From the NCBI RefSeq assembly GCF_003334785.1, contig NZ_QOWV01000003.1: a DNA stretch of 64,000 nt. The stretch is one strand, 5' to 3'. The notes below the pieces were generated by a model. The model was not told the origin of the DNA and did not search any database. It saw nothing but the letters and a program-made list of their open reading frames with translations. Positions 1,091 to 1,603 of this stretch are shown piece after piece. Source of the stretch: Escherichia coli (GTDB lineage Bacteria > Pseudomonadota > Gammaproteobacteria > Enterobacterales > Enterobacteriaceae). The stretch's first letter is position 1; each line of letters opens with the position of its first letter. Both the position numbers and the translations under genes were made by a program.

Positions 1091-1603
1091 GTCTTTGTCT
1101 TTCTCTCTATCCCGCTGGTACACAGGAGGGTTTCCCCCGACGTCAACACACCTCATTCGAGCACGTGGTGGAGGTTCCGGTTGGTGTTGATGCTTTAATT
1201 GTATGTCACCGACGTTTCTTCGCCAGTGTAAAAGTATACTTTTTAACCGCAATATTTTTGTCATCTCAGACGATTTTTTATCGCAATCCTGAACGGTATA
1301 CGGCTCGATAACGCTGCAATCTTGCGCACCGACGATAACGTTTGCGCATCAATTGCCTGGTTTTTCATCGTCAAGACAATAAAAGAGAAAAAAGCAGCAA
1401 ACTTCGGTTGAAAAAGCCGCTATGATCGCCGGATAATCGTTTGCTTTTTTTACCACCCGTTTTGTATGCGCGGAGCTAAACGTTTGCTTTTTTGCGACGC
1501 AGCAAATTGTCGCAAACCTGGAGCAGGAAGATAACGTTTCGCTGGCAGGGGATTGTCCGCCACGCATCTTGACGAAAATTAAACTCTCAGGGGATGTTTT
1601 CTT

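Follow-up and report, generated by a model that had tools for sequence, protein, structure and literature searches.

Candidate PurR operators and a covarying leader RNA in the upstream region of ghxP in Escherichia coli and related Enterobacteriaceae

The ghxP locus

The gene ghxP (yjcD) encodes a guanine/hypoxanthine transporter and lies at positions 1604–2953 on the plus strand of the DNA studied here, a stretch of 64,000 nucleotides of Escherichia coli (NCBI RefSeq assembly GCF_003334785.1, contig NZ_QOWV01000003.1) that we call the window. Its coding sequence was placed by the list of open reading frames (ORFs) and by the MG1655 annotation (b4064). The stop codon of soxR and the ATG of ghxP are separated by 545 bp, the length given for this leader in an earlier sequence-only reading, which had described an array of four direct repeats and one inverted repeat within it. 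These repeats are real and their assignment to PurR was right in outline, whereas the idea of an array of four sites is wrong. Instead, we argue, with a probability of about 0.75, that ghxP is under two layers of control, namely PurR operators around a sigma-70 promoter and a conserved structured leader RNA, and that the four repeats are split between these layers.

In the window, soxS (185–508, minus strand) and soxR (594–1058, plus strand) precede ghxP, and yjcE (3104–4753, plus strand) follows it. The small RNA SraL/RyjA matches the Rfam family RF01408 at 1051–1191 on the minus strand (153.3 bits, E 1.6e-36, gathering score 39), in agreement with its MG1655 annotation (b4459). It shares the soxR-ghxP spacer with the repeats but overlaps none of them: it sits 129 bp upstream of the interval 1320–1560, in which the sequence-only reading had placed it. 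A terminator scan places a bidirectional terminator at 1052–1082, where a single 13-bp stem is common to the convergent soxR and sraL transcripts. Up to position 3044 the window is identical base for base to E. coli K-12 MG1655, and published MG1655 coordinates therefore transfer exactly (window position = U00096.3 coordinate minus 4,276,875). From 3045 on, the register with MG1655 is lost, which points to a small indel between ghxP and yjcE and marks the strain as closely related to K-12 but distinct from MG1655. For conservation, we compared the ghxP loci of 80 Enterobacteriaceae species with a GhxP identity of 90–99%, in alignments of up to 81 sequences; the ghxP coding divergence among the compared genera reaches 0.30 substitutions per site.

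PurR boxes upstream of ghxP

The four repeat words are GATAACGTTTGC (1334–1345), GATAATCGTTTGC (1432–1444), CTAAACGTTTGC (1476–1487) and GATAACGTTTCGC (1530–1542), and all share the core ACGTTT. The first and last had been located correctly, while the second starts at 1432 rather than 1433 and the third at 1476 rather than 1486. A literal search for the 12-mer in the window, allowing up to two mismatches, returned 4 matches against 6.2 expected. The word is thus not enriched, and the density of the 12-mer, which the sequence-only reading had proposed as a test, would have looked negative. Therefore, the copies were re-read as 16-mer PurR boxes centred on CG and scored with a weight matrix, as that reading had also suggested. 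The matrix drew on the PurR sites that Cho et al. (2011; PMC3159470) list in their Table 1, except that of ghxP, which would have made the scoring circular; 27 sites remained. Its training sites score 12.2–24.9 bits, and ranks refer to 127,970 positions in the window.

Three copies can be read as operators on the plus strand. The strongest is O3 (repeat 3, AGCTAAACGTTTGCTT, 1474–1489), which ranks first with 19.0 bits, followed at rank 2 by O1 (repeat 1, ACGATAACGTTTGCGC, 1332–1347) with 18.4 bits. O2 (repeat 2, GGATAATCGTTTGCTT, 1431–1446) scores 11.1 bits (rank 7) and lies over the -10 hexamer and the predicted start site. Copy 4 (1528–1543) reaches 8.3 bits, ranks 23rd and scores better on the minus strand. 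Exact score probabilities per position are 2.0e-7 for O3, 3.4e-7 for O1, 3.1e-5 for O2 and 1.2e-4 for copy 4, corresponding to 2e-4, 4e-4, 0.03 and 0.13 hits expected by chance in the 545-bp leader. O1 and O3 are far beyond chance, O2 is marginal by sequence alone but conserved, and copy 4 is not significant as a PurR box. Each PurR box is a full 16-bp pseudo-palindrome with a central CpG and a weaker left half, and not one of several half-sites in a same-orientation array as had been proposed. Likewise, the extra T of copy 2 is no insertion: centred on CG, O2 is identical to the published glyA site AGGTAATCGTTTGCGT at 13 of 16 positions, and its GATAAT is the -10 hexamer.

All three boxes stand out against variable flanks in the conservation profile of the alignment. 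O1 scores at least 14.6 bits and O3 at least 12.4 bits in 80/80 species. O2 is kept in 78 of the 80 and lost only in Mangrovibacter; in many genera its first base is A and it reaches 14.1 bits. Its CGTTTGC, 3' of the -10 hexamer, occupies a part of the promoter that is normally free to vary and is nevertheless kept in 79/81 sequences and additionally in Erwinia and in Enterobacteriaceae bacterium ESL0689. For copy 4, in contrast, scores of 8 bits are confined to a few sequences of Escherichia and Citrobacter. The spacing of the boxes is conserved unequally. O1 and O2 are 99 bp apart in 79/81 sequences, although about 40 bp between them vary in sequence, whereas O2 and O3 are separated by 42 to 206 bp. 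The free segment lies 3' of box 1, within 1349–1407, and its length is nearly constant across 30 or more genera. Taken by sequence, conservation and published regulation, boxes 1 and 3 qualify as PurR operators. Box 2 is borderline by score, yet well placed and conserved, and copy 4 does not qualify.

PurR control of ghxP is already known and has been published for one site. The chromatin immunoprecipitation-microarray (ChIP-chip) region 'ryjA/yjcD' corresponds to window 957–1587, covers all boxes and is present with adenine and absent without it (Cho et al., 2011; PMC3159470). The motif reported there, ACGATAACGTTTGCGC at 4,276,230, falls on window position 1332 and is thus exactly O1. The same site was called by Sastry et al. 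(2019), who also place ghxP in the PurR-1 iModulon, so that the AACGTTT core is PurR-related as the sequence-only reading had supposed. Purine- and PurR-dependent repression has been described (Kozmin et al., 2013; Rodionova et al., 2021): adenine represses yjcD through PurR, and HAP represses it 4-fold. Increased ghxP expression has also been reported for all four constitutive cusS mutants in minimal medium, for which the authors offer no explanation (PMC10920338); by eye, the ghxP leader holds no CusR-box-like sequence.

A further conserved word, TTGCGCA, lies 4 bp upstream of box 1 (1322–1328) and is about 100% conserved in 81 sequences. It recurs 20 bp away at 1342–1348 inside box 1, and since TGCGCA is its own reverse complement, the two copies form a TGCGCA-N14-TGCGCA dyad. 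The upstream word has no PurR-matrix score and no promoter match, and it may be a candidate site of a second factor. Far from the locus, the sequence GGATAATCGTTTGCAT at window 47937–47952 scores 11.6 bits and gives a weak match (E 0.25) to the covariance model of the leader RNA described below. It overlaps the start codon of a 262-aa minus-strand ORF, presumably phnC. About 4 such hits are expected by chance in the window, and this one is probably meaningless.

Predicted promoter and translation start

A consensus scan of 1040–1640 yields a single promoter-like site, a predicted sigma-70 promoter at 1408–1437 on the plus strand with the -35 element TTGAAA (1408–1413), an 18-bp spacer and the -10 element GATAAT (1432–1437), matching 10 of 12 consensus positions. 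Both TTGAAA(A) and GATAAT are invariant, and the spacer measures 18 bp in 81/81 sequences while its sequence varies freely. From this arrangement we infer a ghxP transcription start near 1443–1445; the supplements of Kim (2012), Ettwiller (2016) and Adams (2021) yielded no ghxP start sites or 3' ends. On this predicted numbering, the box centres would fall at -104.5 (O1), -5 (O2, covering the -10 hexamer and +1) and +38.5 (O3), and the covarying RNA helix described below would begin 15 nt downstream of the start. Just upstream of the -35 element, the conservation profile shows a conserved A-rich stretch followed by GCAAA(C/G)TT (1381–1407, plus strand), which is no PurR box by the matrix and is possibly an UP-like element. 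A second promoter around O1, a sigma-54 promoter and a divergent promoter using TTGCGCA were also considered and rejected, as they show no consensus match and no conserved -10 element.

Translation signals were located from the sequence and the ORF. The Shine-Dalgarno sequence AGGGGA (1589–1594) and the start codon (1604–1606) follow an A-rich linker (1575–1587) on the plus strand, and the alignments show CAGGGGAT to be invariant. We discarded a small upstream ORF that would use the ATG found in many genera (GATGACG), given that E. coli has ATA at this position and codon-level changes are non-conservative. A number of the compared loci carry insertions of 45–160 bp between box 2 and P0, the outermost helix of the leader RNA. 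These insertions fall right after the predicted start site and lengthen the 5' leader while leaving the conserved domain untouched (L047, L054–L056, L059, L062 (Klebsiella/Raoultella), L040, L049, L053, L072, L075, L080, L081, L041, L042, L077, L079). Several of them form hairpins of their own, for example UUUGCUC...GAGCAAA in Klebsiella.

A conserved three-helix leader RNA

Downstream of the promoter, the plus strand encodes a structured RNA domain of about 117 nt (1458–1574), in which an outer helix, P0, encloses the helices P1 and P2. It was defined by RNAalifold, by pair counts with controls, by a covariance model (R1) and by mutual information. P0 emerged from folding full-length leaders and pairs 1458–1473 (core GUAUGCG.GG) with 1560–1574 (CC.CGCAUCU.UGACG). 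P1 is formed by the first 11 nt of O3 (1474–1484) and the core of repeat 4 (AACGUUUCGCU, 1533–1543). P2 is the inverted repeat. Its arms TTGCGAC (1492–1498) and GTCGCAA (1509–1515) had been read correctly and extend to nine pairs, 1491–1499 with 1508–1516, giving a hairpin of UUUGCGACG and UGUCGCAAA with an 8-nt loop. The junction between P1 and P0 (1544–1559), GGCAG(U/G)GGAUUGUCC(A/G), is highly conserved, with at least 90% identity at most positions. It possibly forms a small invariant hairpin, GUGGA/UCCAC, in a segment so nearly invariant that it offers no covariation by which pairing could be judged.

The three-helix fold is shown by covariation. In A3, a MAFFT alignment of 52 leaders made without structure, 91.1% of the cells are paired, compared to 34–48% when the partners are slid against each other. 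Double changes occur in 14 pairs and 101 cells (5–10 and 14–29 after sliding), and 0 of 500 shuffles reach the observed values. Model R1, built from 50 sequences, recovers the full domain in 30/30 held-out orthologues and in 81/81 sequences overall. In the held-out set (A5), whose alignment was fitted to the model, 91.8% of the cells are paired against 33–38% after sliding, and 22 of 33 pairs show compensatory changes. For P0, compensatory changes are found in 6 of 13 pairs in A3 and in 11 of 13 in the held-out set; examples are 1467:1566 (UA 29, AU 12, CG 4), 1466:1567 (AU 37, CG 4, UA 3) and 1464:1569 (GC 22, UA 11, GU 9). In P1, the pair 1476:1541 is CG in 28 sequences, UA in 24 and UG in 12 and never C-A, with repeated changes on a ghxP-based tree. 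P2 shows compensatory changes in 7–9 of its 9 pairs and 52 distinct stems among 78 leaders, all at the same position (GCGAC/GTCGC, GTGGC/GCCAC, GTGAC/GTCAC, ATGAC/GTCAT, ACGGTG/TACCGT and others, depending on the genus). The inverted repeat is thus a covarying RNA hairpin and not a protein palindrome. A mutual-information scan of about 3,100 column pairs has model pairs in its top three places, led by 1497:1510 in P2, and 12 of the top 30 are also model pairs; beyond the three helices, mutual information revealed no pseudoknot and no extra helix. G·U cells outnumber A·C cells by 142 to 26, and the fold therefore belongs to the ghxP-sense RNA. Minimum-energy folds of the E. coli leader include P0, P1 and P2, and over 50 species the stability of the domain exceeds that of dinucleotide shuffles (mean z -2.2). 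The helices are spared by the insertions seen in other genera, and the covariation-supported leader extends over E. coli and at least 30 related genera.

The fourth repeat finds its place in this fold. Repeat 4 is the RNA pairing partner of box 3 and not a fourth operator. Only its ACGTTT core is conserved, while its tail (TTTCGC, TTTAGC or TTTAAC) departs from the PurR half-site TTTGC, complements the left arm of box 3 and covaries with it. In lineage L088, box 3 contains TAATCG and the repeat-4 position CGATTA, so that the change A1480U is matched by U1537A and P1 pairing is restored. O3 is nearly palindromic and its complement therefore resembles an operator, which accounts for repeat 4.

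Among more distant relatives, two modules come apart. Erwinia keeps the promoter with box 2, box 3 (17–19.6 bits) and a P0-like helix (AUGCGUGG/CCACGCAU), and box 1 is absent. In Enterobacteriaceae bacterium ESL0689, boxes 1 and 2 are present and again 99 bp apart, and box 3 and the RNA fold have been lost.

Searches for a known class of regulatory RNA gave no candidate. Apart from sraL, Rfam returns nothing at E up to 1 in 900–1800, and within 1430–1620 there is no family match at E up to 10 (noise only, with E of 4 or more for 1430–1620). A purine riboswitch (RF00167) or other known RNA family was hence rejected, there being no Rfam covariance-model match. Model R1 finds no second copy of the fold at E up to 1 upstream of ghxQ (xanQ-guaD-ghxQ), xanQ, xanP, adeQ, adeP or uacT. 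The inverted repeat was also considered as a terminator or attenuator and discarded: a U-run precedes 1491–1516, ACCUGG rather than a U-tract follows, and the terminator scan finds the soxR/sraL terminator only. Binding of CsrA was considered as well. GGA motifs are present, but Supplementary Data 6 of Potts (2017) lists no ghxP peak from crosslinking immunoprecipitation sequencing (CLIP-seq) in E. coli, and the Salmonella supplements hold no entry for ghxP or yjcD. The CsrA-linked expression change also affects xanP, adeP, codB and tsx and is therefore probably indirect. Evolution studies that mention ghxP report no regulatory-region mutations in the leader, and a match to yjcD in a G-quadruplex paper was set aside as it refers to a gene at 1.35 Mb, another locus.

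Several smaller features of the leader were noted. The segment GGCAGUGGAUUGUCCACC (1544–1562) is nearly invariant across genera, and the Escherichia lineage alone has changed 1549 (U to G) and 1559 (A to G). In E. coli, CAGGGGAU occurs twice, at 1546–1553 and at 1588–1595, the latter being the Shine-Dalgarno region, and CAGGGGAUGU resembles the consensus obtained for CsrA by systematic evolution of ligands by exponential enrichment (SELEX). UCCGCC (1556–1561) can pair with the GGGGA of the Shine-Dalgarno sequence, in a region where no covariation is available. In addition, GYGG (1548–1551) and GCGG (1470–1473) could compete for CCRC (1560–1563), which hints at alternative pairings. In most genera the P2 loop (1500–1507) is rich in C (CCCCUUU-like). 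Other Escherichia sequences have CCCCAAAU or CCCCAGAU here, and this E. coli has CAGCAAAU; no pairing partner for the C-run was found.

Alternative readings

All four copies could instead be bound by PurR, with several dimers loaded onto an array of one orientation and the inverted repeat as a separate protein site. The common ACGTTT core and the position of all copies under one ChIP-chip peak are in line with this, as is a PurR-like box of 17.5 bits at the fourth position in lineage L088. We regard this reading as improbable, given the low score, reversed orientation and chance expectation of copy 4, its restriction to a few Escherichia and Citrobacter sequences, and a tail that covaries as the complement of box 3. 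Moreover, the stem of the inverted repeat changes its sequence and stays paired, unlike a palindrome recognized by a protein. That the repeats merely reflect chance similarity or remnants of local duplication, with function limited to the single published PurR site, would agree with the lack of enrichment of the literal 12-mer and with the one site reported in the literature and databases covered. This we find scarcely credible: box 3 equals box 1 in strength (P 2e-7) and occurs in Erwinia as well as in 80/80 species, and box 2 and the 99-bp spacing persist across genera that have diverged considerably in ghxP itself. The helices might also belong to a cruciform in the DNA or to a minus-strand transcript rather than to the ghxP mRNA, considering that Watson-Crick covariation alone is blind to the strand and that a 72-aa ATG-initiated ORF lies on the minus strand at 1349–1567. 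G·U pairs, however, are valid on the plus strand only and prevail over A·C, the 5' boundary of the domain lies just after the conserved plus-strand promoter, and the insertions in other genera would disrupt the minus-strand ORF, which makes such an origin very improbable.

A further possibility concerns what the leader does. It might act as a sensor on top of PurR, either a riboswitch of a new kind or a regulatory RNA bound by a protein, and affect ghxP translation or mRNA stability. The leader is a multi-helix domain with strong covariation that ends about 15 nt before the Shine-Dalgarno sequence, and in B. subtilis a guanine riboswitch precedes the homologue pbuG. Unpaired segments (1544–1559 and, in part, 1517–1532) are very highly conserved and hint at specific recognition, which is why we consider a sensor role at all, if with some reserve. 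Against it stand the absence of an Rfam match, the lack of a second copy upstream of the other transporter genes searched, the missing CsrA CLIP-seq peak and an alternative pairing that hides the Shine-Dalgarno sequence in only 3/13 genera. Furthermore, the obvious ligands are already sensed by PurR. On balance, a sensor function appears possible but rather unlikely.

Two layers of control, as argued here, also have points against them. In E. coli, O2 falls below the weakest training site (11.1 against 12.2 bits), and its conservation is partly owed to the -10 hexamer. The resolution of the ChIP-chip peak cannot separate the occupancy of O1, O2 and O3, and the two genome-scale studies (Cho et al., 2011; Sastry et al., 2019) report O1 only and neither of the boxes at 1431 and 1474. 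All positions relative to +1 depend on the predicted start near 1444. The strong box at the repeat-4 position of L088 implies that this site may bind PurR in some species. Regarding the RNA, the whole-leader fold of E. coli alone is no more stable than shuffles (z -0.43), and P1 has one clearly covarying pair only, besides a U-C mismatch at 1477:1540 in the E. coli lineage and an uncompensated A1480U in Kluyvera-like genera. A folding test found no consistent switching of the Shine-Dalgarno sequence, its sequestration with P0 blocked being seen in the 3/13 genera mentioned above. Finally, the fixed 99 bp between O1 and O2 are left without a mechanism, given results on a chimera that carries the PurR regulatory domain (see below).

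Proposed mechanism

In the two-layer arrangement that we favor, PurR would bind when hypoxanthine or guanine accumulates. The substrates of GhxP are the co-repressors of PurR, resulting in direct negative feedback on uptake. O2 would block RNA polymerase at the promoter, and O3 might serve as a downstream block, a mode of action described before at purB and purR. O1, with its fixed 99 bp to O2, would play an auxiliary part; the individual occupancy of O2 and O3 is, like the start site, a prediction. The constant distance would imply a stereospecific relation of O1 to the promoter. PurR looping was considered as the cause of the 99 bp and rejected: the chimera carrying the PurR regulatory domain shows no spacing-dependent looping, and a simple PurR loop is therefore not supported. 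Once transcribed, the leader would fold with P0 on the outside and with P1, in which the RNA copy of O3 pairs with 1533–1543, and the hairpin P2 inside. Our best guess is that this leader is a cis-acting element that sets the stability or translation of the ghxP mRNA.

Comparison with known systems

The ghxP boxes resemble the PurR operators of the E. coli pur regulon in being 16-bp pseudo-palindromes with a central CpG that fit ACGNAAACGTTTGCNT, in lying within a region that PurR occupies in vivo in a co-repressor-dependent way (ChIP-chip with adenine) and in serving a target in the purine economy. The pur regulon also provides precedents for more than one site per gene and for sites downstream of the start (purB, purR); two PurR sites are annotated at purR and purA and one at most targets (Swint-Kruse and colleagues). 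At ghxP, in contrast, three boxes are conserved, of which two reach 18 bits or more. The distance to the promoter-proximal box is fixed at 99 bp for the distal box and variable for the downstream box, whose sequence also provides one strand of a conserved RNA helix. Other nucleobase-transporter promoters of K-12 carry one strong box and sometimes a weak companion. For xanP, boxes of 18.6 and 12.5 bits are 98 bp apart (L083, 2878–2893 and 2976–2991), the second just inside the coding region; for adeP, boxes of 20.0 and 12.2 bits are 32 bp apart (L084, 4710 and 4742); and a box of 18.9 bits that is absent from the table of Cho et al. (2011) precedes the ATG of uacT by 47 bp (L082, 19321–19336). 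The layout at ghxP is hence an extreme of this pattern rather than a new principle.

With GalR at gal (OE/OI) and LacI at O1/O3, the locus shares a repressor of the LacI family and a distal and a promoter-proximal operator about 100 bp apart. As in the gal and lac loops, the intervening DNA is A/T-rich, variable in sequence and constant in length. PurR differs from GalR and LacI in that it has no tetramerization domain and no known HU or other architectural partner, and looping at ghxP is only an analogy. On the RNA level, the guanine riboswitch (RF00167) of B. subtilis pbuG and xpt-pbuX likewise precedes a permease for hypoxanthine/guanine that belongs to the same family; it, too, is a structured leader of about 100 nt and works alongside a DNA-binding purine repressor. 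The ghxP leader does not match it in sequence or structure: an outer helix encloses an arm of stem and hairpin and a conserved junction, and there is neither a terminator nor a clear platform for sequestering the Shine-Dalgarno sequence.

Implications

In the ghxP literature and the Rfam database that we searched, the three-operator layout, the structured leader and the doubling of an operator as an RNA strand appear to be undescribed. O2 and O3 are placed where they could repress, while the published box lies about 100 bp upstream at a rigid distance, which would change how the ChIP peak is read. ghxP would also allow a natural test for cooperation between distant PurR dimers. An operator that is also an RNA strand would be a clean example of constraint on one sequence at both the DNA and the RNA level, and it explains the fourth repeat. 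We consider it doubtful that the leader (1458–1574) represents a new class of regulatory RNA in Enterobacteriaceae, be it a riboswitch or a protein-binding sensor of a purine-related signal. If it does, a repressor would read 11 nucleotides as DNA that a sensor would read again as RNA, and the uptake of guanine and hypoxanthine would be under two-level purine control analogous to that by PurR and the guanine riboswitch in Bacillus. A leader that senses a metabolite or a protein would thus add a new regulatory RNA class in the best-studied bacterium.

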